Source: Thermodesulfobacteriota bacterium (GTDB lineage Bacteria; Desulfobacterota; Desulfobacteria; Desulfobacterales; SURF-7). Taken from it: a DNA stretch of 51,565 bases. Made by a program: the position numbers and the translations under genes. This document shows positions 22,254 through 42,702 of the stretch, one piece after another; positions within the stretch are counted from its first letter, which is position 1, and every line of letters starts with the position of its first letter. The notes beneath the pieces were generated by a model. It did no database searches and was not told the origin of the DNA. It worked only from the letters and a program-made list of their open reading frames with translations. The DNA is taken from positions 1-51,565 of the forward strand of contig JBMORA010000059.1 in the NCBI GenBank assembly GCA_049320885.1, in the 5' to 3' direction.

Positions 22254-23276
22254 TCAGCCGCCGATGGCGGACATATGGCCTGCGATGGGCTTGGTCGTCT
22301 CCGGGGTCAGGCCGTGGCCTTGGGGTTTCTTGGCCACGGCCGATAACATCAGTTCCACAAGACGGCTGTCGGTGCATCCAGCCCGCATCGGCTCCTTTAG
22401 ATCCGTCTGCTCATCCGACAGCAGACAGGCCCGGATACGTCCGCTGGCCGTGAGCCTCAGCCGATTGCACGCTTCGCAGAAATGGTTGCTCAGCGGGCTG
22501 ATAAACCCGATTTCTCCCCGGGCGTTCTGAAACCGGTACCGCCGGGCCGGACCGTCGTTTGCGCTGTTGCGAACCGGGGTCAGAGGTCCCAGGGTTTTCT
22601 CCAGTGTTTGCTTGATTTCACCGGCCAACAGCGGAGGATCCGGGTGGATGCCCAGGCCGCCGATGGGCATTTGCTCGATAAAGCGGATATGGAACGGGTA
22701 GGCGAATGACAATTGCCCCAGGCGCGACAACTCGTGATCGTTGATGCCCTTCAGCGCCACCACATTCAGTTTGATGGGGAAGAACCCGGCTTCATGGGCG
22801 GCCAGAATTCCTTCCCAGACCTTTTGAAAAACAGGATGCCCGGTGATGCGATGATACGTGGATGCGTCCAGGGTGTCCAGGCTGACATTGAGCCGCCGAA
22901 CCCCGGCGGTCTTCAGTCTTTCGACATTTTCCTTCAGCAGCAGGCCGTTGGTGGTCAACGCCAGGTCCGTAATTCCGTTGATCGCCGATAATCGGGCAAG
23001 GAATTCATACACTCCCTTGCGCATCAACGGTTCTCCGCCGGTGACGCGGATTTTGGAAATCCCCAGTCCCACGGCGATCCTCACCACGCGCAGGATTTCC
23101 TCGTACCGCAGGATATCCACATGGGTGAGCTTGGGAATCCGGTCGGTGGGCATGCAATACAGGCAATTCAGGTTGCATCGGTCGGTTATGGAAATGCGCA
23201 GGTAGTTAAGTCGCCGGTCGAAACCGTCCACCAGTCCATCCGGTTTCGATATCTTCCGGGATTCGAGGGAATTCAT
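22254..23276 (-). CDS. moaA: GTP 3',8-cyclase (Mo/W cofactor biosynthesis)
   Basis: YLRISITDRCNLNCLYC, TGGEP, FCEACNRLRLTASG..C and C-terminal MSAIGG; the probable start is ATG 23276. Confidence 0.96.
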   Translation of the reverse strand: MNSLESRKISKPDGLVDGFDRRLNYLRISITDRCNLNCLYCMPTDRIPKLTHVDILRYEEILRVVRIAVGLGISKIRVTGGEPLMRKGVYEFLARLSAINGITDLALTTNGLLLKENVERLKTAGVRRLNVSLDTLDASTYHRITGHPVFQKVWEGILAAHEAGFFPIKLNVVALKGINDHELSRLGQLSFAYPFHIRFIEQMPIGGLGIHPDPPLLAGEIKQTLEKTLGPLTPVRNSANDGPARRYRFQNARGEIGFISPLSNHFCEACNRLRLTASGRIRACLLSDEQTDLKEPMRAGCTDSRLVELMLSAVAKKPQGHGLTPETTKPIAGHMSAIGG

Positions 23277-23360
23277 ATCCAGAAAGGCCGCCTGTCCTAA
23301 TTGATATTCATATTCGGGCTCATCGCTCCTGGATAATTCCGATTTTTCAGGAGTAACAGG

Positions 23361-23390
23361 AATGTAACCCAGGAGTTGTCCCCAGGTCAA
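23361..23390 (-). promoter_or_regulatory. Possible sigma70 promoter for moaA
   Basis: Minus strand: TTGACC - 18 nt - TACATT. Confidence 0.35.
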
Positions 23391-23419
23391 TCTTTCTTTC
23401 TGCATCTTTCTTTCTGCAT
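23390..23419. repeat. 14-bp perfect tandem duplication
   Basis: ATCTTTCTTTCTGC x2 plus AT in the moaA-nuoA intergenic region. Confidence 0.9.
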
Positions 23420-23554
23420 ATTTGGATCTTGACATTTGACGTCTGTTTCACTATCAGTGTCCTTTCCGTCGGTTCCGCGGCGCCGGTGTGCCGCCGTTCG
23501 CCAGCGGCCATGGGGAGCCGAGCGGGAAGGTAACCTGCTGTCTAAACAATACTG

Positions 23555-23583
23555 TTGACACCCGGGGAACCTTTGCATATACT
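23555..23583 (+). promoter_or_regulatory. Sigma70 promoter of the nuo-fdh operon
   Basis: TTGACA (23555-23560) - 17 nt - TATACT (23578-23583), about 60 nt upstream of nuoA. Confidence 0.75.
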
Positions 23584-23644
23584 CCGCCCCGGTAAAAATG
23601 GGGTGGGCTTCGCTTATTATCAACCCGCAAAGCGGACAGGATGC

Positions 23645-23998
23645 ATGAACGAGTATATTCCGGTACTGATGATGATTTTTTTGGCGGCGGCCACGGCTGC
23701 TGGCATGATCGTCGCCACCACGTTGATCGGCCCCAAAAAGAAATTCGCGGACAAGATGGAGCCGTTCGAATGCGGCGAAAGTCAGATCGTGTCCCCCAAA
23801 CAGCGGTTTTCCATTAAATTTTATCTGGTAGCGCTTTTTTTCGTGATCTTCGACATTGAAGCGGTTTTTGTATATCCGTGGGCCGTGCTTTTCAAGGAGC
23901 TGGGGATGTTCGGTTTCATTGAAATGCTGGTGTTCATATCCATACTGGCCGTCGGCCTGATTTACGTCTGGAGAAGGGGAGCGTTGGAATGGGAGTAA
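23645..23998 (+). CDS. nuoA: Complex I subunit A
   Basis: PFECGE, FYLVALFFVIFDIEAVFVYPW and RRGALEWE. Confidence 0.95.
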   Translation: MNEYIPVLMMIFLAAATAAGMIVATTLIGPKKKFADKMEPFECGESQIVSPKQRFSIKFYLVALFFVIFDIEAVFVYPWAVLFKELGMFGFIEMLVFISILAVGLIYVWRRGALEWE

Positions 23999-24558
23999 AA
24001 CGTCAAGGGACCTTGGTTTCTCCGGACCTGCCGGGAAGGATTGCGGATTCCGCCGATCCGATGCGGCTGCTGGGCGATAGCGTCATCATGACCACCGTGC
24101 AGTCCGTGGTGAACTGGAGCAGAAAATATTCCTTTTTTCTCTATCCCTTCGTCACGGCCTGCTGCGGAATGGAGTTCATGTCCGTGGCCGGACCGAGATA
24201 CGATCTTGACAGATTCGGCGCGGCGTTGCCCCGATTTTCTCCAAGACAGGCCGACCTCATGATGGTGGTGGGCACCATCAGCCATAAGCAGGCGCCCATC
24301 CTGGTGAAGGTGTATAATCAGATGGCCGAACCCAAATGGGTTTTCGCCTTCGGCGTCTGCGCCGTATCGGGAGGCTTTTACGACAATTACGCCACGGTTC
24401 AGGGCATTGATACCCTGATACCGGTGGATGTGTATGTCCCGGGGTGTCCGCCGCGTCCGGAAATGGTGATCGACGGCCTGCTGAAACTCCAGGAAAAGGT
24501 CGCGAAGGAAAAATGGTCGGATTGGCCCAAAGGCGCGTCGCCGGTAAGCAAATGCTAA
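23989..24558 (+). CDS. nuoB: Complex I subunit B (N2 cluster)
   Basis: TACCGMEF with tandem Cys, SPRQAD, GVCA and PGCPPRPE; ATGGGAGTAA overlap with nuoA. Confidence 0.95.
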   Translation: MGVKRQGTLVSPDLPGRIADSADPMRLLGDSVIMTTVQSVVNWSRKYSFFLYPFVTACCGMEFMSVAGPRYDLDRFGAALPRFSPRQADLMMVVGTISHKQAPILVKVYNQMAEPKWVFAFGVCAVSGGFYDNYATVQGIDTLIPVDVYVPGCPPRPEMVIDGLLKLQEKVAKEKWSDWPKGASPVSKC

Positions 24559-24592
24559 CAAACCTATTTGAAACCATGTGAAGTGTTCGGTT

Positions 24593-25075
24593 ATGGATGC
24601 CAGCGTGACTCTGAAAAAACTGACAGACCGATTCCCCGAATCGATTCTCGAGACCCATTCCCACCGGGGGGATGACACCGCGATTGTAAGGAAGGAAGAC
24701 ATCCTGAAAATCTGCCTGTTTTTACGGGATGATGAAACCCTGCTTTTCAACTTCATGATGGATCTGACCGCCGTGGATTACATCGGCAGGGAGCCGCGAT
24801 TCGAAGTCGTGTATCATCTCTACTCCCTCCGCCATAATCAGCGGGTGCGGATCAAGGCGGGCGTTCCGGAATCCGATTGCGCCATCGATTCGGTGGTATC
24901 CATATGGCCCGGCGCCAATTGGTTTGAGCGGGAAGCTTTCGATATGTACGGAATCACTTTCAAGGGCCATCCCGAGTTGAGGCGGATTCTCCTGTATGAA
25001 GGATTCGAGGGACATCCCCTGAGAAAAGACTACCCGATAAAGAAACGGCAGCCCCTGATCGGGCCCATCAATTAA
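24593..25075 (+). CDS. nuoC: Complex I subunit C
   Basis: DLTAVDY, RFEVVYHL, ANWFEREAFDMYGI and GHPLRKDYP; start at 24593 or 24578. Confidence 0.95.
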   Translation: MDASVTLKKLTDRFPESILETHSHRGDDTAIVRKEDILKICLFLRDDETLLFNFMMDLTAVDYIGREPRFEVVYHLYSLRHNQRVRIKAGVPESDCAIDSVVSIWPGANWFEREAFDMYGITFKGHPELRRILLYEGFEGHPLRKDYPIKKRQPLIGPIN

Positions 25076-25106
25076 CCCAATACTCCAGTGAGCCATTGTT
25101 TGCGTC

Positions 25107-26297
25107 ATGTCTGATATAACAAAAGATCTTCATACCGAGCACATGGTGATCAACATGGGGCCGTCGCATCCGGTAACCCATGGGACGGTCAAATTTTTAG
25201 CGACCCTGGATGGAGAAACCATCGTGGATTTGAAGGTGGATATCGGGTATCTCCATCGCGGGTTCGAAAAAATGTGCGAAAACGGCACCTGGCAGCAGGT
25301 GATACCGTATACCGACCGGCTGAATTACGTTTCCCCCCTGATCAACAACGTGGGCTATGCCCTGGCCGTGGAAAAACTGATCGGCGTCGAGGCGCCCGAG
25401 CGTTGCCAATACATCCGTGTCATTGCCTGTGAACTTTCCCGCATCTCCGACCATTTCACCAATATCGCCGCGGGCGGCCTGGAACTCGGCGCGTTCACAG
25501 CCTTTCTGTATTTTGTCGAAGCGCGGGAACTTATTTACGACCTGATCGAAATGCTGTGCGGCGCCCGCGTCACCGCCAACTATGTCCGGATCGGCGGACT
25601 GAAGAACGATCTTCCCGGGGACTTCAAGGAAAAAACAGCGGAAGTGTTCAAGATAATTCGCGGTCTATGGGTGGATGTGGACAAGCTGCTGACGAAGAAC
25701 CGGATTTTCATCGACCGGGTCAAAGATGTGGGCCTCATGCCGCCGGATGAGGCCATTGCGCTGGGATTCACCGGCCCCTGTCTCAGGGCCTGCGGGGTGC
25801 CCTATGACGTCCGGAAGGCCCACCCCTACCTGATTTACGACCGCCTGGATTTCGAGGTCCCCATCGGTGAAACAGGCGACAACTATGACAAATACCTGGT
25901 GCGAATGGAAGAGATACAGCAAAGCCTGCGGCTTGTCGAGCAGGCGCTTGATCAGCTTCCCGACGGCCCGATAAACCTGGACATGCCCCAATACAGATGG
26001 CAGTCAAAGGATGATGTCTACAACAGAATCGATTCGTTGATTTTTCATTTCAAGACGGTCATTGAAGGCATCAAGCCGCCTCCGGGGGAAATTTATTCCG
26101 CCGTTGAGGGAGCCAACGGTGAACTCGGGTTTTATCTGGTGAGCGATGGAAGCGGCAAGCCCTACAAGTGCAGGGTGAGACCACCGTGTTTTCCCTTAAC
26201 CGCGGCAATGCCCAGGATGATGAAGGGGCGGCTCATCGCCGATATCGTCCCCACTTTCGACATGATCAACATGATCGGCGGAGAATGCGATAGATAA
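25107..26297 (+). CDS. nuoD: Complex I subunit D (quinone binding)
   Basis: NMGPSHPVTHG, GYLHRGFEK, DRLNY and GECDR; no NiFe-binding CxxC pairs. Confidence 0.95.
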   Translation: MSDITKDLHTEHMVINMGPSHPVTHGTVKFLATLDGETIVDLKVDIGYLHRGFEKMCENGTWQQVIPYTDRLNYVSPLINNVGYALAVEKLIGVEAPERCQYIRVIACELSRISDHFTNIAAGGLELGAFTAFLYFVEARELIYDLIEMLCGARVTANYVRIGGLKNDLPGDFKEKTAEVFKIIRGLWVDVDKLLTKNRIFIDRVKDVGLMPPDEAIALGFTGPCLRACGVPYDVRKAHPYLIYDRLDFEVPIGETGDNYDKYLVRMEEIQQSLRLVEQALDQLPDGPINLDMPQYRWQSKDDVYNRIDSLIFHFKTVIEGIKPPPGEIYSAVEGANGELGFYLVSDGSGKPYKCRVRPPCFPLTAAMPRMMKGRLIADIVPTFDMINMIGGECDR

Positions 26298-26299
26298 CC

Positions 26300-27370
26300 A
26301 TGCTTGCAGATCTCATCGAGTCCGTAGCAAAAATTGTATTTATTTTCGGCGTGAATATTGGATTTTTCGCCCCGGTGCTGGGATGGGTGGAAAGAAAACA
26401 AAGCGCGGTGATGCAGGACCGGATCGGCGCCAACCGGGCTGATATCCTCGGGTTCACCGTCATCGGCCTGTTTCACTCCATTGCCGACGCCGTCAAGGTT
26501 CTCACCAAGGAAGATTTTATTCCCAGCGGCGCCAATAAAGTCTTCCATACCATGGCGCCTTTCATCAGCCTGGTGCCCGCCATCGTGACCTTCACCGTCA
26601 TCCCGTTCGGCGGGCGGTACACCCTGTTCGGCCATGACGTCAACTTGGTCATCGCCGATCTGGATGTGGGCATCCTGTTCATCTTCGCTTTTTCCTCCCT
26701 GGCCACCTACGGCGCGGTCCTCGGTGGATGGTCCTCCAACAACAACTGGTCCTTGCTGGGTGGATTGCGGGCCTCGGCCCAGATGCTTTCCTACGAAGTG
26801 GCCATGGGACTCACCATCATCGGCGTCCTCATGGTGTATGGTTCGTTGAAACTAACCGAGATCGGCGCCATGCAGGAGAATTTTTTCCGCTGGGGGATAT
26901 TCATGCAGCCGGTGGGGTTCATCCTCTTTCTGACCTGCGCCATCGCCGAAAACAAGCGGGCGCCGTTCGATGTCCCCGAGGCGGAGTCCGAGCTCGTGGC
27001 CGGTTATTTCACCGAATACAGCGGCATGAAATTCGTCATGTTCTGGATGGGTGAATTCCTGGAGATCGTGACCATCAGCGGTATCGTGACCACCCTGTTT
27101 TTCGGGGCCTGGCATCTGCCCTTCGTCAGCGACCGGATGCTGCTGTCCTACTTCCAGTTCGCGGGCCCCAACGGGGCCGGGGTGCTGGCGATGCTCGTCA
27201 ACATCGCCGTGTTCTTTGCAAAGGTCATTTTCTTCATATGGCTGCAGATGACGGTGCGCTGGACCCTGCCGCGTTTCCGATATGATCAGGTCATGAAATT
27301 GTGCTGGAAGATGATTCTGCCGATTTCACTCATCAATATTATCATTACCGGGCTGGTTCTTTTGATATGA
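26300..27370 (+). CDS. nuoH: Complex I subunit H
   Basis: ERK..A.MQDRIG, AQMLSYE, RAPFDVPEAESELVAGYFTEYSG and PRFRYDQ. Confidence 0.96.
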   Translation: MLADLIESVAKIVFIFGVNIGFFAPVLGWVERKQSAVMQDRIGANRADILGFTVIGLFHSIADAVKVLTKEDFIPSGANKVFHTMAPFISLVPAIVTFTVIPFGGRYTLFGHDVNLVIADLDVGILFIFAFSSLATYGAVLGGWSSNNNWSLLGGLRASAQMLSYEVAMGLTIIGVLMVYGSLKLTEIGAMQENFFRWGIFMQPVGFILFLTCAIAENKRAPFDVPEAESELVAGYFTEYSGMKFVMFWMGEFLEIVTISGIVTTLFFGAWHLPFVSDRMLLSYFQFAGPNGAGVLAMLVNIAVFFAKVIFFIWLQMTVRWTLPRFRYDQVMKLCWKMILPISLINIIITGLVLLI

Positions 27371-27990
27371 ATAAAACGACGGTTCCACAGCAAGCCAAAT
27401 GTCATCCCATGGTGGGCGTCCCGACGGAAAAGTTGAGACCCAAACAGGTGAGGAAAAACCTGGATCTTACCTTGTGGGAAAGACTCTACATTTTCGAGAT
27501 CATCCGGGGCATGTACATCACGACCCGGCATTTTGCCGTCAACATGTTCGGATTCATCATCCCGCCGAAAGGCCGGAAGAGAAAAATCTTCACGGTTTAC
27601 TATCCGGAAGAGAAGGTGACGCTTCCTCCCGCATATCGGGGCAGGCCCGTCCTGGTTGCCTGGAAGAATGGCAGGGAAAAATGCGTCGCCTGTGGATTGT
27701 GCGAAAAAATCTGTCCGGCGGGCGCCATCACCATCGTCGCCGAGGAGAGAGACAGCGGGGATCGATATCCGGCAAGCTATACCTTGGATATGGCCCGGTG
27801 CGTGTATTGCGGTTATTGCGAGGAAGTCTGCCCGAAGGAAGCCATTGTCATGAGTGCTGAATATCAGGGGCTGGCCGAGAGGGACAGGCGGAACATGAAA
27901 TACGCCAAAGAACAACTGCTACGGTCCGAGGAAAGCGTGAAAGCCCGTATCGAATACATCAGGAGGATTTACTCCAAATGCACTTATTGA
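27367..27990 (+). CDS. nuoI: Complex I subunit I (2x[4Fe-4S])
   Basis: YPEEK, CVACGLCEKICP and CVYCGYCEEVCP; ATGA overlap with nuoH. Confidence 0.95.
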   Translation: MNKTTVPQQAKCHPMVGVPTEKLRPKQVRKNLDLTLWERLYIFEIIRGMYITTRHFAVNMFGFIIPPKGRKRKIFTVYYPEEKVTLPPAYRGRPVLVAWKNGREKCVACGLCEKICPAGAITIVAEERDSGDRYPASYTLDMARCVYCGYCEEVCPKEAIVMSAEYQGLAERDRRNMKYAKEQLLRSEESVKARIEYIRRIYSKCTY

Positions 27991-28511
27991 TGTTCTATAT
28001 ACTCGGTTTCGGCGCCGTTGTATCGGCGCTACTGATGGTGACCAACCGGAAGCCGGTATCGGCGGCCATGAGCTTGATCGCCGTCATGGTTTTTCTTGCC
28101 GGATTGTATGTGCTGCTGGATGCGCACCTGATCGCCGCTCTGCAGCTCATCGTATATGCCGGGGCCATCATGGTTCTCTTCCTTTTCGTAATCATGCTGC
28201 TGAATGTGGAGGAAAAGGAAGGGCGTCTTGCGGGGAATGCCATTCTGATGCAATTCGGGGCAATCGCGGCTGTCGGTTTTCTTCTCATAATGATGGTAAG
28301 TTATGTAAAGACGGGAGCGCCTCTGCCCGCCATCGGTGAAGGGATGGATCAATTCGGTACCACCAAGGCTGTCGGGAGAATGCTGTTCACCGAATACCTC
28401 TTGCCTTTTGAAATAGCCTCCGTGTTGTTGCTGGCGGCGATCGTCGGCGCCGTCATTCTGGCCAAAAGGAATATTGATGATCCGGAACAGGGAACACGCC
28501 ATTCCCGGTGA
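27978..28511 (+). CDS. nuoJ: Complex I subunit J
   Basis: QLIVYAGAIMVLFLFVIMLL and YLLPFEIASVLLLAAIVGA. Confidence 0.95.
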   Translation: MHLLMFYILGFGAVVSALLMVTNRKPVSAAMSLIAVMVFLAGLYVLLDAHLIAALQLIVYAGAIMVLFLFVIMLLNVEEKEGRLAGNAILMQFGAIAAVGFLLIMMVSYVKTGAPLPAIGEGMDQFGTTKAVGRMLFTEYLLPFEIASVLLLAAIVGAVILAKRNIDDPEQGTRHSR

Positions 28512-28524
28512 TGAAGGGTAACCT

Positions 28525-28827
28525 ATGGTTTCATTGAATTCATATCTGATATTGGGTGCGATACTTTTTTCCATCGGCGCGGTGGGGGTGTTCACGCAAC
28601 GAAATGCCTTGATCATCTATATGTGCATTGAGTTGATGCTGAATTCCGTGAATCTGACCATCATCGCATTCTCACGTTTTTTGAACAATATGGACGGTCA
28701 CGTGTTCGTGTTCATGATCATGACGGTCGCCGCGGCCGAAGCTGCCGTGGGATTGGCCATCATCATCTCCATGTTCCGGAACAAAGCGACCGTTAACGTG
28801 GACGACATTCATTTAAGTAAGGGTTAG
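28525..28827 (+). CDS. nuoK: Complex I subunit K
   Basis: [12 protein letters not shown] and [12 protein letters not shown]. Confidence 0.95.
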
Positions 28828-28834
28828 TGAAAAC

Positions 28835-30331
28835 GTGCAAACGATTATATCCATAAAGCCATTGCTTGCTGTGCTGGCGTCTCTTCTCGCGGTGCCGCTG
28901 ATTGTCAAGACGGGAGATCGGCCCAATCTTCGGGAATCCTGGTCCATCATCGCCGGGATCATCAAGTTTTCCATCGTGGTCTCCATGGTCCCCGCCATCC
29001 TTGCTGGAAACACCATCGAATATACCCTGGTGACTTTTTATCAGGGGATCGATATCAAGTTCCGGGTGGATGCCCTCGGGCTGCTGTTTGCGACGGTTTC
29101 TTCCTTCCTGTGGATCGTCACCACCTTTTATTCCATCGGGTATATGCGGAGCGGAAACGAACACGCCCAGACGCGATTCTTCACCTGCTTCGCCATCAGT
29201 CTGTCATCCACCGTGGCGGTGGCATTTTCCGCCAACCTGATCACCCTCTTCGTTTTTTATGAATTTTTGAGCCTCGCCACCGTGCCCCTGGTGGGACACA
29301 AGGAAACACCCGAAGCCTATGCCGGGGCACGAAAGTATCTGCTCTACCTGCTGAGCCTGTCAAAGACCCTGCTGCTGTCCGGTATCATCATCGTCTATAT
29401 GGTGGCGGGCACCACGGATTTCCAGAGCCACGGGCTCCTGCAAAACCAGCAGGGATCGACGCTGTTGTTCATCGGATTCTTCCTGTTTCTGTTCGGCTTT
29501 GCCAAAGGCGGGGTCATGCCGGTGCACAACTGGCTGCCGTCGGCCATGGTGGCGCCCACCCCCGTCAGCGCCTTGCTCCATGCCGTCGCCGTTGTGAAGG
29601 TGGGGGTTTTCTCGATCCTCCGGGTGGTGTTCCACATTTATGGTGTGGACCTGATGGGGCGTATGAATCTGGGCATCACCGCCGCATATGTCGTTTCGTT
29701 CACCATTCTGACGGGCTCCATTATCGCTCTCTCCAAGGACAACTTGAAGGCCAGGCTGGCTTACTCCACCGTCAGCCAGTTGTCGTACGTCATTCTTGGC
29801 GCCGTTCTGCTGACGTCGTGCAGCATGCTGGGCGGCATCATGCACATCGCCAATCATGCGTTCTCCAAAATCACCCTGTTCTTTTGCGCCGGCTCCTTGT
29901 ATTGCAGCGCCCACAAAACCGAGATCAGTCAGCTGTCCGGCATCGGTAAAAAAATGCCCTGGACGATGGCGGCTTTTTTCATCGGTTCGCTGAGCATGAT
30001 CGGCGTGCCCCCGGCGGCCGGATTCAACAGTAAATGGTATCTGGCCCTGGGTTCCATCGAGGCTGATCAGATACCCATTCTGCTGGCCCTGCTGGCCAGC
30101 ACCGTACTCAACGCCGCTTATTTTTTACCCATTACTTACAAGGCTTTTTTCGAAAAGGCGGAAGAACCGGCGCCTTCTTCCCATGGTCATCACGATCACC
30201 ACGACCATCATGAAGAAATCCGGGAGAACCCCATGATCGTGGTGCCATTGGTGTTGACGGCGCTCATATCTCTGCTGATCGGAATATATCCCGATTATTT
30301 CTTGAGGCTCGCACAGGAGGTGATCCGATGA
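28835..30331 (+). CDS. Additional antiporter-like subunit, MrpD/MnhD-family (Proton_antipo_M)
   Basis: FVFYE, AKGGVMPVHNWLPSAMVAPTPVSALLHAVAVVKVG, RLAYSTVSQL, HAFSKITLF and SKW; 498 aa with no lateral-helix tail; GTG start. Confidence 0.88.
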   Translation: MQTIISIKPLLAVLASLLAVPLIVKTGDRPNLRESWSIIAGIIKFSIVVSMVPAILAGNTIEYTLVTFYQGIDIKFRVDALGLLFATVSSFLWIVTTFYSIGYMRSGNEHAQTRFFTCFAISLSSTVAVAFSANLITLFVFYEFLSLATVPLVGHKETPEAYAGARKYLLYLLSLSKTLLLSGIIIVYMVAGTTDFQSHGLLQNQQGSTLLFIGFFLFLFGFAKGGVMPVHNWLPSAMVAPTPVSALLHAVAVVKVGVFSILRVVFHIYGVDLMGRMNLGITAAYVVSFTILTGSIIALSKDNLKARLAYSTVSQLSYVILGAVLLTSCSMLGGIMHIANHAFSKITLFFCAGSLYCSAHKTEISQLSGIGKKMPWTMAAFFIGSLSMIGVPPAAGFNSKWYLALGSIEADQIPILLALLASTVLNAAYFLPITYKAFFEKAEEPAPSSHGHHDHHDHHEEIRENPMIVVPLVLTALISLLIGIYPDYFLRLAQEVIR

Positions 30332-30585
30332 TCAAGAAAATCGTTCTATATATCGGAAACCCGAAAAATTCGAACATATTGAAGAAGGTGAGTTATGTCG
30401 CCCTGGTGCTGGTGGTGATTGCCGACTTTTTCGTTCACCGCGCACACGCCATTTATATTTGGGATAAAATACCCGGCTGGGGAGCATTTTACGGATTTGT
30501 TTCCTGCGTTGTTATCATTCTGGTCTCCAAATTTCTTGGACACCAGGGTGGCATCATGCATGACGAGGATTATTACGATGACTGA
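30328..30585 (+). CDS. Small two-TM membrane protein
   Basis: 85 aa with two hydrophobic segments and acidic C-terminus EDYYDD; AGGAGG RBS; overlaps both neighbouring genes. Confidence 0.8.
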   Translation: MIKKIVLYIGNPKNSNILKKVSYVALVLVVIADFFVHRAHAIYIWDKIPGWGAFYGFVSCVVIILVSKFLGHQGGIMHDEDYYDD

Positions 30586-32350
30586 TTGGTTGCACCCGTC
30601 CCTTGTATTCATCGCCGGATCGGTTCTGATTCCTTTCCTGAGGGGGAAAGTCCGGGACGCCTACCTGATGCTGATCCCCCTTCTTGGAGTGGCCTCGGTT
30701 TACTACATGACCCCGGGAACGTATTGGACCTATACCTTCCTCGGCACTCCGCTGACCTTCGGCGCGGTGGACAAGCTCAGCATTGTTTTCGGCTGGGTTT
30801 TCACCATAGCGAGTTTCATCAGCATCGTCTACGCCCTGCATGTGAAGGAACCGGGGCAACACATGGCCGCCTTCATCTATGTGGGCGGGTCCTTGGGCGT
30901 CACCTTCGCCGGCGATTTTTTCACCCTGTTCGTCTTCTGGGAGCTGATGGCCTTTTCTTCCGCCTACCTGGTTTTCGCAAGGCGCGAAAAAACCGCCCTG
31001 GAAGCCGGATACCGGTATATCCTGGTGCATATTTTCGGCGGCGTCTGCCTCTTGGGCGGCATCATCCTCCACTATATGAAGACCAAATCCATCGGGGTCG
31101 GCCCCATTGATCAGGACGGCAGCCTCTCTTTCTACCTGATCCTGGCGGGAGTCATGCTGAATGCTGCGGTGCCGCCGCTGCACGCCTGGCTGACGGACGC
31201 TTATCCCGAGGGAACCGTCACCGGCTCGGTGTTCATGTCGGCCTTCACCACCAAAACCGCGGTGTATCTGTTGGTGCGTGTGTTTCCGGGCACCGACCTG
31301 CTCATGTACCTCGGAACCATCATGGCCCTGTATGGAGTCGTCTACGCGGTGCTGGAAAACGACTGCAGAAGGCTGCTGGCCTATCACATCATCAGTCAGG
31401 TCGGGTATATGGTGGCGGGTGTCGGTATCGGGACGGATATGTCCCTGAACGGCTCGGTGTCCCACGCCTTCGCCCATATTCTCTATAAGGGCCTTCTGTT
31501 CATGGGCGCCGGCGCAGTTATCCAAATGACCGGCCGCCGGAAACTGACGGAACTCGGTGGCCTGTACAGGACGATGCCCATCACCCTTGTACTTTACATG
31601 ATCGGAGGCTTCGCCATTTCGGCTTTCCCCCTGTTCAGTGGGTTTGTCACCAAATCCATGGTGGTGGCGGGAGCCGCCCACGATCATCGGCCCGCGGTGG
31701 CCCTCTTGCTGACCATGGCCTCGGCGGGAACTTTTCTGCATACGGGTCTCAAGCTGCCGTATTACATGTTTTTCGGCAAGGATTCCGGATTAGAGGCCAA
31801 GGAACCGCCACTGAACATGCTGATCGCCATGGGTTTCGCCGCCTTCCTGTGCATCGGCATCGGCGTGCTTCCGGGACCGCTTTACGACCTCCTTCCCTAT
31901 CCGGTCCATTTCGAACCGTATACGGGCGACCATGTGACCAGCGCACTGGGGATTCTGTTGTTCACTGGTTTGGGATTCTTCATGCTGCTCAAGAAACTGG
32001 ATCCGGAACCCACCATCAGTGTCGACACGGATTGGGTGTACCGCAAGGGCAGCCGCCTGTTCATGTGGTTCGTCAACAAACCGCTGACAATATATGAGAG
32101 CTACCTGGCGGAAATCTACGAGACCTGGTTTTCCAGACTCACCTTGGTTCTCTCGAGTTTCTTCGCACGTGTTATCGATGTTCGGGGCATAGATGGAATC
32201 GTAAACGGCGTCGCCGGGTTTTTCATCGGCCTTGCCGGCACCTTGCGGGTATCGGCCACCGGCATGGTGCGGAATTACGCGGTTACAATGCTGATCGGCG
32301 GTGCCGCCATCATCGCTTATTACCTGTTGGCCTATTTGATGAGACAATAA
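30578..32350 (+). CDS. Mrp-type (Na+/H+ antiporter subunit D-like) subunit with a NuoL-type C-terminal lateral helix; NuoL equivalent
   Basis: [23 protein letters not shown] and [13 protein letters not shown]; NuoL-like tail [12 protein letters not shown]...[16 protein letters not shown]; start ATG 30578. Confidence 0.88.
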
Positions 32351-33843
32351 TGATTTCGCCAAATTTTCCGATTCTTTCCGTCATTACGTATCTGCCGTTG
32401 CTGGGAATTCTGGTGATCTGCCTGATCAACAGCAAACACCATGATTTGATCCGCTGGGTGGCTTTTATAACCGCCGTTGTGGCCTTCGTCGTATCCCTGC
32501 CCCTCTATTTCCTGTTCGATTCGACCAAATGGCAGATGCAATTCGTCGAAAAAGTTCCCTGGGTGGCTCAATTCGGGATCCAGTATCATATGGGAATAGA
32601 CGGCATCAGTTTACTCCTCATCCTTCTCACCACGTTTCTCTCGGCGCTCGCCATTCTGTCCACCTGGACGGCGGTCACGAAAGGGGTTAAAGGATACATG
32701 GTTTCCCTGCTGCTGCTGGAAACCGGAATGATCGGGGTGTTCTGCGCCCTGGATTTCATCCTTTTCTACATCTTCTGGGAAGTGATGCTGATTCCCATGT
32801 ATTTCATCATCGGGATTTGGGGCGGCCCCCGCAGGATCTACGCCGCGGTGAAGTTCTTCATTTACACCATGAGCGGCAGCGTCCTGATGCTGGTGGCGAT
32901 TCTTTTCCTTTATTTCATGAATTATAAAGCCACCGGTGCATATTCCTTCGATATCTTGTCGTATTACAATCTTGGAATCACGCCGGGCATCCAAATCTGG
33001 CTTTTCCTGGCGTTTTTTCTGGCGTTCGCCATCAAAGTCCCCATGTTTCCCTTTCATACCTGGCTTCCGGATGCCCATGTGGAGGCGCCCACCGCCGGCA
33101 GCGTTATCCTGGCGGGGGTTCTGCTGAAGATGGGTACATACGGATTTCTGCGCTTCAGTCTGCCGATTTTCCCCCAGGCCAGTATGGATTTCGCACCCAT
33201 CATTCTGGGCCTGTCGGTGATCGGGATCATATACGGCGCCATGGTGTCCATTGCCCAGGAAGATATCAAAAAACTGGTGGCCTACTCGAGCGTCAGCCAT
33301 CTCGGCTACTGCATGCTGGGAATGTTCGCCCTGAACATGGAAGGAGTCAAGGGCAGCATCATTCAGATGATCAACCATGGGTTGAGTACGGGCGCACTGT
33401 TTATGATCGTCGGGATGCTGTATGAACGGCGGCATACCCGGTTAATTTCGGAATACGGCGGCATCATGAAGGTCATGCCTGTTTTTGCCGGGCTTTTCCT
33501 GCTGGTCGCATTTTCTTCCATGGGGGTTCCCGGATTGAACGGTTTTGTCGGGGAATTGCTGATCCTTATCGGAGCGTTTAAGGCCTCCGTCGGCTATGGG
33601 TTGCTTGCGACCATGGGACTCGTTCTGGGCGCCGTTTACCTTCTGTGGATGTACAAGCGGGTCATGTACGGCGAGATCACCAAGGAAGAAAACAAACACT
33701 TGAAGGACATGACCGGCCGGGAATACGCGTATCTGATTCCCATCATCATTTTCATCGTCTGGATCGGCGTATATCCGAAACCGTTTTTGGATAAAATGGA
33801 CGCATCCGTGCAGCATCTCCTGCAGGTGGTAAAACCGCAATGA
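32350..33843 (+). CDS. nuoM: Complex I subunit M
   Basis: [47 protein letters not shown] and GFVGE. Confidence 0.96.
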
Positions 33844-33937
33844 TCCGGATGGAAGCGACGGGGACAGGACTTCGGCCCACGAATTTTAACAATTGACGTA
33901 ACATGAACCGGTTGCCTCGGACCAAAGGCGATAGATT

Positions 33938-35416
33938 ATGGAACAGGTAATGACGACAATCAAGGTTAGCGCCCTGCATCCCGAAATTATTTTGGCGCTT
34001 TTTTCATTGATCATTCTGCTGCTGCAATCCTTTTATGGCGCCCGCTCCAGAAATTATTACGGCTATGTGAGCCTTGTCGGCGTCCTGGCGTCCGCGGTGG
34101 TGGTCGTTTTAGAGCCCGCCGGCTTTGGGATGAGATTGCTGGAGTATTCTTTTAACGGGATGTGGGTGGTGGACAACTACTCCCGATTTTTCAAACTGAT
34201 ATTCCTTCTGGGTACCGGACTCACCATCCTCATTTCGATCAAATATCTCGAAAATGAGGCCATGCAGCACGGCGAATACTTCGCCTTGATCCTGTTTGCC
34301 ACCATCGGCATGATGATCATGGCCAGCGGAGCCGAATTGATCACCATTTTTCTAGGGATTGAGCTGATGTCCCTGTCGCTTTATGCCCTGGCCGGATACA
34401 CCCGGACGCGGATGGTTTCCAACGAGTCGGCCCTGAAATATTTTCTGCTGGGTTCCTTTGCAACCGGCTTTTTGTTGTACGGCATCGCCCTGCTGTATGG
34501 CGCCACCGGCACGACGGAAATCAGGGGGATTGCCGGAGCCATCGCTTCAAAGGGTTTTCAGGGTACCTATGCCATTCTTGCAGGCATGGCGCTCCTGCTC
34601 ATCGGGTTCGGCTTTAAAACGGCCGCGGTTCCCTTTCACATGTGGACGCCGGACGTATACGAGGGCGCGCCGGCACCCGTGACCGCCTTTATGTCCGCGG
34701 GTCCCAAGGCCGCCGCTTTCGCGGCGTTTGTGCGGATATTTCTGGAGGCGTTTTCCAACCTCCAGGGAGAATGGACGGTGATCATCTGGGTGATGGCGGT
34801 GCTGACCATGAGCATCGGAAATATCATCGCCCTGGTCCAGGACAACATCAAACGCATGCTGGCCTATTCCAGTATCGCTCACGCCGGATATATTCTAGTC
34901 GCCTTCCTGGCCGGCGGGGAACTCGGCATCACCGGGATCCTGTATTACCTGCTGACCTATACTTTCATGAATATCGGTGCCTTCGCATTGATCACGATCC
35001 TGGGCGGCAAAGGAGAGCAACGGGTCCGTGTTCTGGATTACAGGGGCCTCGGATACAGGCATCCCTATGCCGCCGTTGCCATGAGCCTGTTTCTCTTTTC
35101 CCTGGCGGGGATTCCTCCCACCGGTGGTTTCATCGGTAAATTTTACATTTTTTCCGCGGCGGTCAAGGAAGGTTATATCGCTCTCACCATTATCGGCGTG
35201 CTCAACAGCGTCGTCTCCGTCTACTACTATTTGCGCGTAACCGTGGCGATGTATATGCAGGACCCCGATACGGCGGATGCGGAAATTCCCGCAACGGTTT
35301 TTTCGCCCGCTCTCGTTGTGGCGATTCTAATTTCGGCATGCGGCGTGCTGTCGCTGGGAATATATCCCTCCGGCTATGCCGAAATCGTAAGGCAGTCCTT
35401 TTTAATGCTGAATTAG
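33938..35416 (+). CDS. nuoN: Complex I subunit N
   Basis: ESALKYFLLG, FKTAAVPFHMWTPDVYEGAP, KRMLAYSSIAH, GFIGKF and SVYYYLR. Confidence 0.96.
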   Translation: MEQVMTTIKVSALHPEIILALFSLIILLLQSFYGARSRNYYGYVSLVGVLASAVVVVLEPAGFGMRLLEYSFNGMWVVDNYSRFFKLIFLLGTGLTILISIKYLENEAMQHGEYFALILFATIGMMIMASGAELITIFLGIELMSLSLYALAGYTRTRMVSNESALKYFLLGSFATGFLLYGIALLYGATGTTEIRGIAGAIASKGFQGTYAILAGMALLLIGFGFKTAAVPFHMWTPDVYEGAPAPVTAFMSAGPKAAAFAAFVRIFLEAFSNLQGEWTVIIWVMAVLTMSIGNIIALVQDNIKRMLAYSSIAHAGYILVAFLAGGELGITGILYYLLTYTFMNIGAFALITILGGKGEQRVRVLDYRGLGYRHPYAAVAMSLFLFSLAGIPPTGGFIGKFYIFSAAVKEGYIALTIIGVLNSVVSVYYYLRVTVAMYMQDPDTADAEIPATVFSPALVVAILISACGVLSLGIYPSGYAEIVRQSFLMLN

Positions 35417-35513
35417 GTAGACAATCAGGGCATGATAACCATGCAGCACAGATTTCGAATCCGATATGTTTAAATAAGCATATTTTTTCTGTCAGGGAAG
35501 AAGGAAGGCATGT

Positions 35514-38183
35514 ATGACGAAGGTCAGGTTAACAATTGACGGCAAGGAAGTCATCACCGAAAGCAACAAGACCATCCTCCAGGCAGCCGAGAGCGCCGGG
35601 GTTCGAATCCCGACTCTCTGTTACCATGAACGTCTGAATCCCATCGGATCCTGCCGATTGTGCGTCGTCGAGATCGATGGTATGGAGGAACCGGTGACGG
35701 CTTGCGAAACTTCCGTCCGGGAGGGTATGTCGGTGATAACCCAATCCGACCGGTTGTACCGCATGCGGCAGGCTTCCCTGAAGCTCATCCTGGCCCACCA
35801 TCCCCTGGATTGCCCCATCTGCGATAAAGCCGGCGAATGCATGCTGCAGGACCTGGTATTCGAATACGGCATTCGTATAACAGATTACAAGGCCCCGGAA
35901 AAACCGCGTGAGTCGGTGTATGCGACGCCGTTGATCAAATACTGGCCCGACAGATGCGTCTTGTGCCTGCGGTGTGTTGCCGCCTGCCGTGAAATCAAGG
36001 GCGCCTGCGCGCTGGATGTCGCCAAAGCCGACGGAAAAGCGAGCCTCGTTTTCCATCCGGACCGTTGTGTCTCCTGCGGGGAATGCCTGCAACTTTGCCC
36101 GGTGGGAGCGTTGACCGAAAATGTCAGCCGGATAAAATCCAGATCGTTCATCGCGAAAAAAGTACCCACCACCTGCACATACTGCGGCTGCGGCTGCCAA
36201 ATGGAACTCCATGTTCTCGACAACCAGGTCGCCAACGTGACCGGTCTGAACGTCACAGGCGTGAACCAGGCCAGTTTGTGCGTGAAAGGACGTTTCGGCT
36301 ATGAATTCATCGCCAGTGACCAGCGCCTGACAAGGCCCCTGATCAAACGGAACGGCAAGTTCGAGGAGGCTGGATGGGATGAGGCCCTGGGGCTGGTGGC
36401 GAAAAAATTTGAACAGATCAAGAAGCAAAGCGGGCCGAATGCCATCGGCGGCTTCGCCTCGGCCCGCTGTACCAACGAAGACAATTATCTGTTTCAGAAA
36501 TTCATGCGCGCGGTGATCGGCACCAACAATGTCGACCACTGTGCCCGTCTCTGACATTCCTCGACGGTGGCCGGGCTGGCCGCCACGTTCGGAAGCGGTG
36601 CCATGACCAACCCCCTGAAGGATGTGCTGAAGTCAAAGGTCATCCTGGTGACCGGAACCAATACCACGGCCAACCATCCGATCATTGCCAACTATATCCA
36701 CGAAGCCGTGACTAAAAACGGGGCGAAACTGATCGTGGTGGACCCGCGCCGGATCAAACTGGTGGATATCTGCCATCTCTGGTTGCGTCCGAAAGTCGGC
36801 ACCAATGTAGCCTGGATCAATGGATTGATGAACGTCATCATCACCGAAGGGCTCCAGGATCAGGCGTTCATCGAAGGACGCACCACCGGGTATGAGGAAC
36901 TGAAACAAGTCGTGGCAAAATACACGCCGGACTATGTGGCCGGCATTACGGGTATCCCGGCAGCGGATCTCGCGGCCGCCGCCCGTCTGTATGCGACCGA
37001 AAGACCCGGTTCCATTCTCTACGCCATGGGTATCACCCAGCACACCAGCGGAACAAACAACGTAAAATGCCTTGCGTCCCTCGCGATGATCTGCGGCAAT
37101 GTCGGCGTTGAGGGCGGCGGCGTTAATCCGCTCCGGGGTCAAAACAACGTCCAGGGCGCCTGTGACATGGGCGGCCTGCCCAATGTGTTCACCGGGTATC
37201 AGGGTGTAACCGATGCCGCTGTGCGGGAAAAATTCGCCAAAGCCTGGAACGTGCCAGCGCTTGCCGAAAAGGCCGGTTTGACCGTCACCGAAATGACCGC
37301 TATGGACGGTCCGATCAAGGCCCTGTATATCATGGGTGAAAATCCCATGCTGAGCGAAGCCGACGTCCATCACGTGGAGAAAAAGTTGACGTCCCTGGAA
37401 TTTCTGGTGGTTCAGGACATTTTCCTAACGGAAACCGCCAAGCTTGCCGACGTCGTTCTACCGAGCGCCTGCTTCGCGGAAAAAGACGGAACCTTCACCA
37501 ACACCGAACGTAAGGTCCTTCGGGTGCGCAAGGCGGTGGATGCACCGGGGGAGGCATTGGAAGACCATCGGATCATTGCGGGGATCGCCGCCAAAATGGG
37601 GTATGCCATGGAATATCCGGATGCCTCCGCCATTATGGACGAGATCAATCGGGTCACCCCGAGTTACGGCGGTATCACGTTCCGGCGGCTGGAAACGGAA
37701 GACCTGACCTGGCCCTGTCCCACCAAGGACCATCCGGGCACCCCCGTTCTTCATAGCCAGCGATTTACCAGGGGGGAAGGGGTTTTCTTCCCCATTGAAT
37801 ACCAGCCCTCCGCCGAACTGCCGGATGGCGACTACCCGTTTGTCCTGACGACAGGGCGCGTGCACGCGCACTACCACACCGGCACCATGACGCGCAAGGG
37901 AAGCGCCCTGAATCGCATCTATCCGGAAGCCATGGCGGAGATCAATGCAGAGGATGCGAAGGCGCTGCAAGTCGCCGATGGCGAATACGTCCATATCGTT
38001 TCCAGACGGGGGTCCCTGCGGATAAAAGCGCAGGTTTCCGAAATGACGGATCATGGGGTTGTTTTCGTGCCCTTCCATTTTTTCGAATCGGCGGTGAACC
38101 AGTTGACCAACAGCGCTCTCGATCCGGTTTCGAAAATTCCGGAACTCAAGATCTGCGCCGTAAAAATCGAGAAGGCGGCATAG
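35514..38183 (+). CDS. fdhF: Selenocysteine-containing formate dehydrogenase alpha subunit (Mo/W-bisPGD) with a NuoG-like Fe-S N-terminus, 889 aa
   Basis: ORFs 35514-36554 and 36567-38183 are in the same frame and joined by TGA 36552-36554, reading NVDHCARL-U-HSSTVAGL. Fe-S motifs: IPTLC..GSCRLC..TAC, HPLDCPICDKAGEC, two CxxCxxCxxxC and CTYCGCGC..LCVKG. The catalytic-region motif RGQNNVQG is present. No Tat signal. Confidence 0.95.
36555..36594 (+). promoter_or_regulatory. Bacterial SECIS element (in-CDS mRNA hairpin)
   Basis: Stem GGTGGCC (36566-36572) / GGCCGCC (36578-36584) with a G-rich loop GGGCT, starting 11 nt after the UGA; a possible lower pairing TTCC/GGAA. Confidence 0.8.
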
Positions 38184-38216
38184 CAAGAAAACAGATCGCC
38201 AATATACGCAGGCTGG

Positions 38217-38252
38217 GGCCGGCCGGATATCACCATATCCGGCCGGCCTTTT
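38217..38252 (+). terminator. Rho-independent terminator of the nuo-fdh operon
   Basis: Perfect 14-bp stem GGCCGGCCGGATAT-cacc-ATATCCGGCCGGCC followed by TTTTGTTT, between convergent genes. Confidence 0.88.
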
Positions 38253-38257
38253 GTTTG

Positions 38258-39601
38258 TCAGGGGTGATCTCCCACCCGGATGGTGCCCTTGACCCATTCC
38301 AGGGTCACCCTGGCTACCAGATAGTCGCGATAGGCCTTGGCCAGATTGTTCTTGGCCCGCAGCAGATTCAACTGGGCGTCCTGGACGTCGAGGTGGGTCT
38401 TGACACCCAGCTGATAGCCCTGTTCCGCCATGCTCAATAATTTTTCGGCCTGGGCCACGGTACCGGAAAGGGCTTTGGCGATTTCACCGGCTTCCTGGAT
38501 GGCATCCACTGCATTGCGCACCTCCAGCGCGATGCCGTCGCGGGTTTTGGCTTCCTCGATCCGGAGAGAGGCCCCGTCGCTCTTGGCCTGGGCCACCTTA
38601 CCGCGGGAACGCAGACCGTCAAAAATGGGATAGGTGATCTGCAGCCCGGCGCGCCATTCGAGGCCGTCCGGATCCGTGGCTTCGTCGTAGTATTTCTTCC
38701 AGCCCAGATTACCCAGCAAGTCGAGCCGCGGTTTATCGCCGGCATCGTAAATCAACACCAGCTCCTGATTGATGTTGTTCCGGTGCCGCAGCTCGGAAAG
38801 CTCCGGACGGTGATCCAGGGCGCATTCCAGGGCTTCCTCATACGGGGGGTAAACGTCGATAACCGTGTCCAGGGAACCTTCGACATCCAGGTTCTCGATG
38901 TCCTCGGCCAATAGAAAACGCAGCTTTTCCGTGGCGGTTTTGATCATGTTTTCCCTGCGGATGACGAGGGGCTGGGCGTTTTCATAGTCCACCCGGGCCA
39001 CCAATTCGTCGTAATCCGTGGCTGTCCCGGCCGCGCGTTTATGCGCGGCCTCGTTCATGTGTCGTTTCTTGAGTTCGAGGTTTTCCTTGGCCAAAAGGGT
39101 CATCACCTTGGCCAGCAGCAGATCATAGAAAGCCTGGGATACATCCCGGGCCACGGCCTGACGGAAATAATCCAGCTGGTCATCGGCGACTTTCCGGTAA
39201 ATATCGGCGGCCCGGATGGCCGCGCCCACCTGACCCCAGGTGAATAACGCCTGGGATAATCCGACCCCGGCGGTGACGGCGTCCTGTTGAACCGGGTACA
39301 TACTGATGGGGTAGTCATTCTGGCTTTCATCCCGTTGCCGGAAGAGACCGGAAGTGACGGTCACCTGGGGCAGGGCCGCCGAGCGCTGCTCCACATAATA
39401 TCCTTCCACCCAGTTGCGGTACTCCATGGCTTTCTGGATATTCCGGTTTTTACCGTCGGCAATGGCCAGGGCCTGATCCAGACGCAGGGTTCTGGATCGG
39501 GCAACGCCGGGCGGAAAAGCGAGAATCGACATCAGGATCAGAAAGGCTTTGATGAAAAAAGGCAGCGAACGGGAACAGACCCGTTTGTCTCCGTGGTTCA
39601 T
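38258..39601 (-). CDS. TolC family outer membrane efflux protein
   Basis: Signal peptide, QRSAALPQV, ITYPIFDG and YQLGVKTHLDVQDAQ; last gene of the RND operon. Confidence 0.9.
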   Translation of the reverse strand: MNHGDKRVCSRSLPFFIKAFLILMSILAFPPGVARSRTLRLDQALAIADGKNRNIQKAMEYRNWVEGYYVEQRSAALPQVTVTSGLFRQRDESQNDYPISMYPVQQDAVTAGVGLSQALFTWGQVGAAIRAADIYRKVADDQLDYFRQAVARDVSQAFYDLLLAKVMTLLAKENLELKKRHMNEAAHKRAAGTATDYDELVARVDYENAQPLVIRRENMIKTATEKLRFLLAEDIENLDVEGSLDTVIDVYPPYEEALECALDHRPELSELRHRNNINQELVLIYDAGDKPRLDLLGNLGWKKYYDEATDPDGLEWRAGLQITYPIFDGLRSRGKVAQAKSDGASLRIEEAKTRDGIALEVRNAVDAIQEAGEIAKALSGTVAQAEKLLSMAEQGYQLGVKTHLDVQDAQLNLLRAKNNLAKAYRDYLVARVTLEWVKGTIRVGDHP

Positions 39602-42600: not shown

Positions 42601-42702
42601 GATGGCCAGCCGGCGATAGGAAAAAAAACCCAGGGTGACCAGGGCCAGCATCATGACAGCGGCGGTGACCGGCCGCTTGACGGACAGATCGGATAGCAAC
42701 AT
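39598..42702 (-). CDS. RND efflux permease, AcrB/AcrD/AcrF family
   Basis: 1034 aa; [32 protein letters not shown] and RLRPIMMTT. Confidence 0.96.

Follow-up and report, generated by a model that had tools for sequence, protein, structure and literature searches.

A selenocysteine formate dehydrogenase in place of NuoG: a candidate formate:menaquinone variant of complex I in a Desulfobacterota genome

Several described enzymes resemble parts of the system considered here. The NuoG subunit of canonical complex I has been described as having lost its cofactor (PMC5123574), and formate:NAD+ activity was not detected for mycobacterial complex I (PMC10068793). The "green complex I" of rhizobia has two MrpD-like subunits in place of NuoL and four antiporter-like subunits in all; formate dehydrogenase (FDH) input is not mentioned in the accessible portions of those reports (PMC9040806, PMC7415380). 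Formate hydrogenlyase (FdhF-HycB) connects a cytoplasmic selenocysteine (Sec) FDH by way of Fe-S clusters to a membrane enzyme resembling complex I (PMC7050243, PMC5061711). The acceptor in that enzyme, a group 4 hydrogenase, is H+ at a NiFe site. Nuo-Bfu is a predicted anaerobic menaquinone complex I with an alternative head for NuoEFG, the NADH/ferredoxin module BfuABC (PMC9304861; Schut et al. 2022); "NuoG" and "Sfr" do not occur in the text of that paper. ForCE of Bacillus subtilis, which reduces menaquinone and has a small ForE partner (PMC8808070), and FdsABG, which is linked to NAD by a diaphorase (PMC7171172), share a five-cluster NuoG-like FDH subunit, and both lack a pumping membrane arm. 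The subject of this study is a 14-gene operon from a Thermodesulfobacteriota bacterium of the Desulfobacterales, on contig JBMORA010000059.1 of assembly GCA_049320885.1; the whole stretch analysed (51,565 nucleotides) is called the window. The operon is complex I-like at its quinone and membrane end and formate hydrogenlyase-like at its donor end, and is a member of neither family. With a probability of about 0.7, it encodes a formate:menaquinone variant of complex I with an active Sec-FDH in place of NuoG. The subunit set, cofactor ligands, Sec machinery, gene linkage, and phylogenetic position were read from sequence and the docking was modelled; from these we infer assembly, electron path, quinone, direction, and the number and kind of ions.

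The genes all lie on the + strand at 23645-38183, with intergenic gaps of -13 to +97 bp, in the order nuoA, B, C, D, H, I, J, K, mrpD (498 aa), an 85-aa open reading frame (ORF), a second mrpD (590 aa), nuoM, nuoN, and fdh (889 aa). Assignment with NCBIfam and Pfam profiles confirmed the gene content proposed in an initial annotation of this DNA, and the ORF list and the same profiles bore out its statement that nuoE, nuoF, and a separate nuoG are absent from the cluster. Its start for the operon, 22254, does not hold; that position takes in a divergent moaA on the - strand. The features shared with canonical complex I are the Q-module NuoBCDI, the membrane subunits NuoAHJKMN, and a NuoG homologue with N1b, N4, N5, and N7-type clusters. 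NuoB (23989-24558) has the tandem cysteines C58-C59 of cluster N2, NuoI (27367-27990) has the N6a and N6b clusters, and NuoD (25107-26297; TIGR01962, 478 bits against a cut-off of 459) has H21 and H25 (HPVTHG) and Y74 (DRLNY) at the quinone site; these are the features of a quinone-reducing Q-module, to which NuoC (24578-25075) also belongs. NuoA (23645-23998), NuoH (26300-27370), NuoJ (27978-28511), and NuoK (28525-28827) follow from the same profiles. Unlike canonical complex I, the operon lacks NuoE and NuoF, its FDH keeps the Sec ligand, the catalytic His, Arg, and Lys, and a bridging cluster, and NuoL is replaced by a pair of MrpD subunits. Unlike Nuo-Bfu, the cluster has no BfuB, BfuC, or NuoE/F-like gene. 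Unlike formate hydrogenlyase, its NuoD is of the quinone type and has no CxxC motif, and its Fe-S adaptor is fused to the FDH. A reading as a group 4 [NiFe]-hydrogenase or formate hydrogenlyase was rejected because NuoD lacks the NiFe ligands, as the initial annotation had noted along with the retained quinone-site residues.

The FDH (35514-38183) has a single in-frame TGA at codon 347 (36552-36554) in the context DHCARL-U-H. A hairpin resembling a selenocysteine insertion sequence (SECIS), with a 7-bp stem at 36566-36584 and the loop GGGCU (GGNCU type), begins 14 nt past the first base of the UGA on the + strand. It is retained in 36 of 36 sequences with the same codon context, and its loop-closing pair is C-G in nine and A-U in 27 of them, switching at synonymous positions. 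The earlier designation of the FDH as a selenocysteine enzyme stands, since selA, selB, and tRNA-Sec were also found in the genome. Two selB genes scored above the cut-off and two tRNA-Sec calls were made (contigs C27, C1, and C12); one selB is apparently in two pieces and adjoins tRNA-Sec on contig C1. The N-terminus matches NuoG-like Fe-S domains in Pfam and NCBIfam, also as claimed, and has ligands for a [2Fe-2S] cluster (C36, C47, C50, C64), the His-ligated [4Fe-4S] cluster N5 (H96, C100, C103, C109), and two further [4Fe-4S] clusters (the Cys set C147-C195), followed by a proximal [4Fe-4S] cluster (C221, C224, C228, C256). The ligands of the first four of these five clusters are invariant in 20 of 20 aligned orthologues, and 28 of 28 orthologues share the active-site residues K258, U347, H348, and R541. 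Scanned apart, the two halves of the protein scored 171 and 651 bits with TIGR01591 (cut-off 666). Judged by its motifs, the protein is an FdhF-type Mo/W-bisPGD enzyme, having the Sec ligand, His, Arg, Lys, and the proximal [4Fe-4S] cluster. A single-sequence AlphaFold2 model was unusable (mean pLDDT 33). The sequence has no twin-arginine motif, in agreement with the initial annotation, and no hydrophobic stretch, and a periplasmic location was rejected because the twin-arginine (Tat) signal is absent. The active-site motif UH/RGQ differs from the CQ/RGH of ForCE (PMC8808070); for a ForE-type gene, no ORF lies between fdh and the terminator, and no genome-wide DUF1641 search was made.

The linkage of this FDH to nuo genes recurs among relatives. 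A NuoD search of a genome collection yielded 80 loci, of which 49 reach at least 77% identity. In 25 of the 49, fdh directly follows nuoN, so that the linkage predicted for nuoEF-less clusters is conserved; in three relatives only 29-32 bp separate the two genes. Two loci (L073, L106) have the order FDH, a 655-aa flavoprotein, nuoA, and in another the flavoprotein precedes nuoA, with nuoN and the FDH convergent. The flavoprotein is found instead of the FDH in 13 loci (directly before nuoA in nine and on another contig in four), and in 12 of these a cofactor-less NuoG-like protein was seen beside it. A close FDH lies across a contig break in four loci, and two are on tiny contigs. From these locus counts, the head is exchanged within one NuoD lineage while the rest stays constant. 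By record title, most of the closest operons come from Desulfobacterales and Syntrophobacteraceae, and the same NuoD lineage includes Nitrospinota. The two genomes of the same genus have no close copies, their best FDH being 55-59% and their best MrpD2 45-53% identical, which suggests that the operon may have been acquired horizontally. In one sub-group (L061, L065, L109) divergent genes for a fusion of FmdE and a molybdopterin-binding domain and for another molybdopterin oxidoreductase lie upstream of nuoA.

An FDH of this type also occurs in the position of nuoG itself. Among 251 genomes of the order, nine have window-type NuoD, and eight of these carry the FDH-type N-terminal Fe-S module; the ninth is a fragmented 89% draft. 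The module is found in only four other genomes of the order, each time directly behind a different nuoD, and three of these four, all Sec-FDHs, lie in the order nuoABCD-fdh(-nuoHIJKLMN) and lack a flavoprotein (Sec-FDH directly behind nuoD, L226-L228; the L227 sequence stops inside the FDH). Across the phylum the module occurs in 123 of 401 genomes. From 38 of these 123, 39 loci were chosen to span families; 31 are nuo-adjacent and eight have no nuo genes within about 10 kb. The nuo-adjacent loci comprise ten Sec- and three Cys-FDHs between nuoD and nuoH, after the flavoprotein; three Sec-FDHs at the head or tail of the cluster; and 11 dead copies after the flavoprotein and four with NuoEF. 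The Sec-FDHs in the nuoD-nuoH slot are 53-65% identical to the window FDH, which nests among them in trees of both the Fe-S module and the catalytic part (support 1.0 for the catalytic clade). In the NuoD tree the window Q-module falls in a different lineage, the earliest branches of which carry the flavoprotein and a dead NuoG-like protein. All trees were made with FastTree, the NuoD tree was rooted on one canonical sequence, and topology tests were not applied. The simplest reading is that an active FDH took over from a dead NuoG-like subunit and that the flavoprotein was then lost in most descendants. The idea of a living ancestor of NuoG was rejected because the earliest-branching members of the NuoD lineage carry the dead subunit; the FDH in the window lineage seems to be a replacement.

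These distributions bear on the proposal that the FDH is a separate soluble enzyme, working with ferredoxin or a flavoprotein and only co-transcribed, while the 13 Nuo and Mrp subunits form a complex that lacks the N-module and has another donor, for example ferredoxin. N-module-less complexes with unknown donors are common (PMC11238625, PMC12142623), the cluster stands without a neighbouring input gene in two relatives, and FdsA and ForC share the five-cluster architecture and work without complex I. This proposal is nevertheless improbable: homologues stand in the literal nuoG position and are exchanged with cofactor-less NuoG-like proteins within one NuoD lineage, the module within the order is found only in genomes with such nuo clusters, and the N5 loop is of the complex I type.

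That loop reads HPLDCPICDKAGEC in the window FDH, identical to NuoG of 7q5y, while FdsA (6tg9) has HPLDCLTC. In soluble FdsA the His-ligated cluster lies at a dimer interface and Leu after the first Cys is its marker (PMC7171172); FdsABG is unlike the window complex in this Leu-type A4 dimer interface. The corresponding residue here, Pro101, is found in 28 of 28 orthologues, in 23 of 23 stand-alone paralogues, and in few of nine other FDHs. In complex I, N7 is about 20 Å from N4 and disconnected (PMC10068793), and in FdsA cluster A2 bridges the gap between N7 and the chain (PMC7171172). Both CxxCxxC sets of the bridging-cluster domain are present in the window FDH. The continuous Fe-S chain anticipated by the initial annotation is supported to the extent that all five predicted FDH clusters, the bridging one included, have their ligands. 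The residues 1-212 of the FDH were modelled with NuoD, NuoC, and NuoI, along with three controls; the docking score was 0.66 and that of the best control 0.00. The mark used was passed by 116 of 157 solved complexes and two of 215 mismatched pairs, rates that apply roughly to the window model. Runs shared at least 91% of contacts, with partner pLDDT of at least 77, and the N5 loop lies against NuoD 305-319 and the first CxxCxxC of NuoI. Since solved complex I has a like interface, the pass indicates likeness and not binding. At the 19 interface positions of the model, orthologues are 75% identical to the window FDH, nuo-linked FDHs of the other lineage 66%, stand-alone paralogues 64%, and other FDHs 40%, which adds little by itself because the rest of the N-terminus follows the same trend (63, 51, 54, and 35%). 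Linkage, homologues in the nuoG slot, the N5 loop, the cluster inventory, and the model thus together support docking of the FDH at the NuoG position, from where it would feed a quinone-reducing, ion-pumping complex, as originally suggested.

In the mechanism proposed, 14 polypeptides would form one complex and formate would be oxidized in the cytoplasm at the Mo/W-Sec site. Electrons would pass from the proximal cluster (the N7 equivalent) to the extra bridging [4Fe-4S] cluster, which is missing from ordinary NuoG through loss, and on to N4 and N5, and then through N6a and N6b of NuoI and N2 of NuoB to menaquinone. This flow would drive ion pumping through NuoH/A/J/K, NuoN, NuoM, and the MrpD pair.

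The membrane arm itself is a known type. NuoL is replaced by two MrpD-type subunits and a small protein, giving four antiporter-like subunits, as in the green complex I. MrpD1 (28835-30331; PRK08375 family) has a NuoL/NdhF-type channel (E143, K224, H249 with K255, K400) and no lateral helix; its best solved match is NdhF (6hum_F), and it is probably the distal subunit. MrpD2 (30578-32350; PRK12668 family) has an MrpD-type core with a NuoL-type tail of transmembrane helix (TM) 15, lateral helix, and TM16. A single NuoL with both channel and lateral helix is not present; the channel is in MrpD1 and the lateral helix in MrpD2, and the order of the arm would be MrpD1-MrpD2-M-N. By a hydropathy estimate the span from TM15 to TM16 of MrpD2 is about 98 residues, compared with about 86 in the NuoL of the same genome, and the difference is smaller than the insertion of 26 residues that reportedly bridges an additional subunit (PMC9040806). 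The 85-aa two-helix membrane protein encoded between the two mrpD genes (30328-30585) matched no family, the ESM Atlas gave only unnamed clusters, and the protein may clamp the tail-less MrpD1 to MrpD2. The block of mrpD, small ORF, and mrpD also occurs in nuo-free Mrp-type clusters of relatives.

Antiporter-like subunits have Glu in TM5, Lys in TM7, Lys or His in TM8, and Lys or Glu in TM12, the TM7 Lys being described as invariant and essential (PMC7419157). The full set is found in MrpD1, NuoM (32350-33843; E144, K229, K260, E402), and NuoN (33938-35416; E142, K227, K257, K401), but MrpD2 has Asn195 in place of the TM7 Lys, so a higher pumping ratio cannot be assumed. Asn occupies this position in 33 of 40 matches in nuo loci (seven off the pattern, two duplicates) and in 13 of 14 from Mrp clusters. 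The arm could, but need not, move a fifth ion per turnover. Some four-subunit arms carry dead heads, and some intact FDHs sit on three-subunit arms; the idea that the fourth antiporter exists to use the extra energy of formate was rejected because arm and head vary independently. The four antiporter-like subunits emphasized in the initial annotation are therefore present, but they belong to a known arm that is not tied to the FDH, and one of them lacks the TM7 Lys. Closely related clusters from Nitrospinota have either canonical NuoL or the MrpD pair (L075 and L077 differing from L086, L088, L108, and L113), so the arm has been swapped within one lineage. A second, distant NuoD lineage in the same order (L036-L039) also has the mrpD1-mrpD2 arm; three of its loci have no input gene among those searched, and one has NuoEF-like genes upstream.

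A number of observations weigh against the formate:menaquinone reading. The SECIS-like hairpin alone is not more stable than shuffled sequences (z +0.57 to -0.31). The nuo cluster has no adjacent input gene in two of the 49 close relatives (L055, L104), and the complex I-type N5 motif is not specific to complex I, since three dead NuoG-like proteins (L262, L263, L268) share it and lack nuo genes in the surrounding 10 kb or so. The host genome has a canonical complex I operon (L001:1843-17158, contig C48) with fused nuoCD and nuoEFG; because that complex is complete, the window complex would be accessory. The energetics are also less favourable than first proposed. With generally used potentials, some of them from PMC9304861, formate to menaquinone gives -69 kJ/mol under standard conditions, -57 at 1 mM formate, and -46 at 10 uM (20 mM bicarbonate), compared with -47.5 kJ/mol for NADH to menaquinone. 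The claim that formate releases more energy than NADH is correct in the standard state, but the advantage is gone at micromolar formate, where -46 kJ/mol covers about 3 H+ at 150 mV. Finally, the genome has an orphan flavoprotein (L183:2525-4501; contig C63:110539-112500) with no partner gene beside it, 66-68% identical to the copies between fdh and nuoA in sister operons, and the [2Fe-2S] cluster of the FDH that would bind a flavoprotein is kept throughout.

In this flavoprotein the C-terminal Fe-S domain of NuoF is joined to an FAD/NAD(P)H domain of GltD type; the protein is presumably comparable to SfrB of Geobacter, after which it is called SfrB-like here. It makes conceivable an extension of the formate:menaquinone reading, a three-way junction for the window genome and a minority of relatives in which the FDH sits on the Nuo arm, the unlinked NADPH-type flavoprotein binds at the [2Fe-2S] end, and formate, NAD(P)H, and menaquinone are interconverted. 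The fdh-flavoprotein-nuoA operons (L073, L106), the ten Sec loci with flavoprotein and FDH in the nuoEFG slot, and the mirror case of G224 and G089, where the flavoprotein is in the operon and the FDH elsewhere, are consistent with such an arrangement, as is the placement of the orphan in a clade that is tied to the window Nuo lineage and elsewhere occupies the nuoEF position. The extension is tentative, because a close orthologue of the flavoprotein occurs in only two of the 26 genomes in which fdh stands at the tail of the operon (tail-FDH genomes, drafts of unestablished completeness); seven have only distant homologues (32-41%), some of which are paired with their own FDH, and 17 have none. 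Nor is the orphan the sister of the copy from the genome whose operon is most similar. Formate alone is likely the input for most of the group, given the 17 genomes without the flavoprotein, and NADPH may be a third substrate in the window genome. Replacement of the NADH module by the FDH, as claimed initially, holds for NuoG and for the absence of nuoEF from the operon; a nucleotide module need not have been lost, with the flavoprotein unlinked in the genome. Partners encoded elsewhere had been named as evidence against the complex, and the unlinked flavoprotein partly answers that description; no orphan NuoEF was seen in the genome, where the other PF01512 matches are part of the second complex I, of Rnf, or of clusters that bring partners of their own.

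The direction of electron flow is best considered with the host physiology. The genome (5.6 Mb, 98% complete) has dsrA, mqnC, and acetyl-CoA synthase, as well as an Ehr-like cluster and a cluster in which NuoEF accompanies a NuoG/FDH-like protein of 30% identity. All 26 tail-FDH genomes have acetyl-CoA synthase, as do 45 of 48 with an intact nuo-linked FDH; the share is 17 of 29 where the NuoG-like subunit is dead and 25 of 51 in phylum genomes that lack the module, contrasts that are inflated by kinship and leave out five background genomes. This distribution points to the methyl branch of the Wood-Ljungdahl pathway as a putative source or sink of formate. The most likely job of the complex would be to pass formate from this branch, during acetyl-CoA oxidation, to the menaquinone pool for sulfate respiration with energy conservation. 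The syntrophic fatty-acid oxidation suggested at first is the poorer fit, as the genomes mostly have dsrA and acetyl-CoA synthase, which suits Wood-Ljungdahl formate better.

Because the drive from formate falls to the level of NADH at low formate, the enzyme should be reversible; near equilibrium it could run as a gradient-driven quinol:CO2 reductase. That it works mainly in this reverse mode, with ion influx lifting electrons of menaquinol (from acyl-CoA, succinate, or sulfur-compound oxidation) onto CO2 to make formate for autotrophic Wood-Ljungdahl metabolism or syntrophic export, is unlikely. In its favour, with four to five ions at 150 mV the reaction would reach or pass equilibrium once formate drops under about 1 mM, a role in reverse transport has been proposed for extra antiporter subunits (PMC9040806), and among 15 sister-lineage genomes outside the order dsrA was not found in 14 and acetyl-CoA synthase was found in 14. 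Against this, dsrA is present in 25 of the 26 tail-FDH genomes, which therefore have a quinol sink, and the size of the arm does not track CO2 reduction, as dead heads are found on four-subunit arms and intact FDHs on three-subunit ones. Forward use in complete acetyl-CoA oxidation with sulfate is favoured, with reverse use in autotrophy or at low formate.

Other features of the window and genome are as follows. A sigma70-like promoter (TTGACA-17-TATACT, 11 of 12 bases matched; 23555-23583, + strand) ranks best of 15 such sites in the region, where 12.7 are expected by chance, and the TTGACA box lies at a similar place upstream of nuoA in seven of the 18 relatives shown. An intrinsic terminator with a 16-bp stem (38215-38250, + strand) is the strongest of 28, with 21.2 expected by chance, and comparable hairpins are found 3' of the fdh stop in several relatives. 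Bracketing of the operon by these signals, as proposed initially, is supported by their ranks but tempered by site numbers near chance. The signal scan found neither a promoter-like site nor a terminator in the 97-bp gap between nuoN and fdh, and an Rfam scan of the window gave no matches. The divergent moaA (22254-23435, - strand; TIGR02666, 355 bits against a cut-off of 284), for molybdopterin biosynthesis, lies outside the operon and flanks the cluster in several relatives too. By ORF appearance, TolC-like and AcrB-like efflux genes at 38258-42702 are convergent on the terminator, and a similar pair lies upstream of the cluster in locus L073. The canonical complex I on contig C48 has a CBS-domain-like gene between nuoA and nuoB.

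Variation in FDHs of this type extends beyond the operon. Slot FDHs in L235, L238, L249, and L260 show stages of decay (Sec to Cys, His to Gln or Leu, a metal ligand lost) and form a natural series from enzyme to wire. The window genome has a stand-alone Sec-FDH paralogue, 51% identical and followed by a ModE-like gene (L002:8418-11111; contig C46:14417-17110). The Fe-S module of the window FDH is found on at least three catalytic lineages in 23 stand-alone paralogues (N5 region 68% identical), and in seven relatives such a paralogue is divergent to nuoA. These paralogues are candidate alternative heads, perhaps as Mo versus W forms. There is about an even chance that Desulfobacterota hold a widespread branch of complex I in which the NuoG position is a plug-in socket for an intact Sec-FDH alone (a reversible formate:menaquinone pump), an FDH with an NADPH flavoprotein (a three-way junction), or a dead wire with the flavoprotein, with stand-alone paralogues such as the C46 copy as exchangeable heads.

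A description of an FDH-headed Nuo complex was not found in a search of the open-access literature (PMC, bioRxiv). If the formate:menaquinone reading is true, this would be the first case within that literature of a quinone-reducing complex I whose subunit in the NuoG position is an active molybdo- or tungsto-enzyme. Two carrier records are titled as strains, Desulfoferrobacter suflitae DRH4 (L098) and Desulforhabdus sp. TSK (L060), which makes the proposal testable. For one class of complex I-like enzymes without an NADH module it offers a donor, which addresses a standing question, and it is relevant to low-energy life and to CO2-fixing biocatalysis. For sulfate reducers with the Wood-Ljungdahl pathway, the complex would provide an extra coupling site, or an ATP-independent, gradient-driven reduction of CO2 by quinol.

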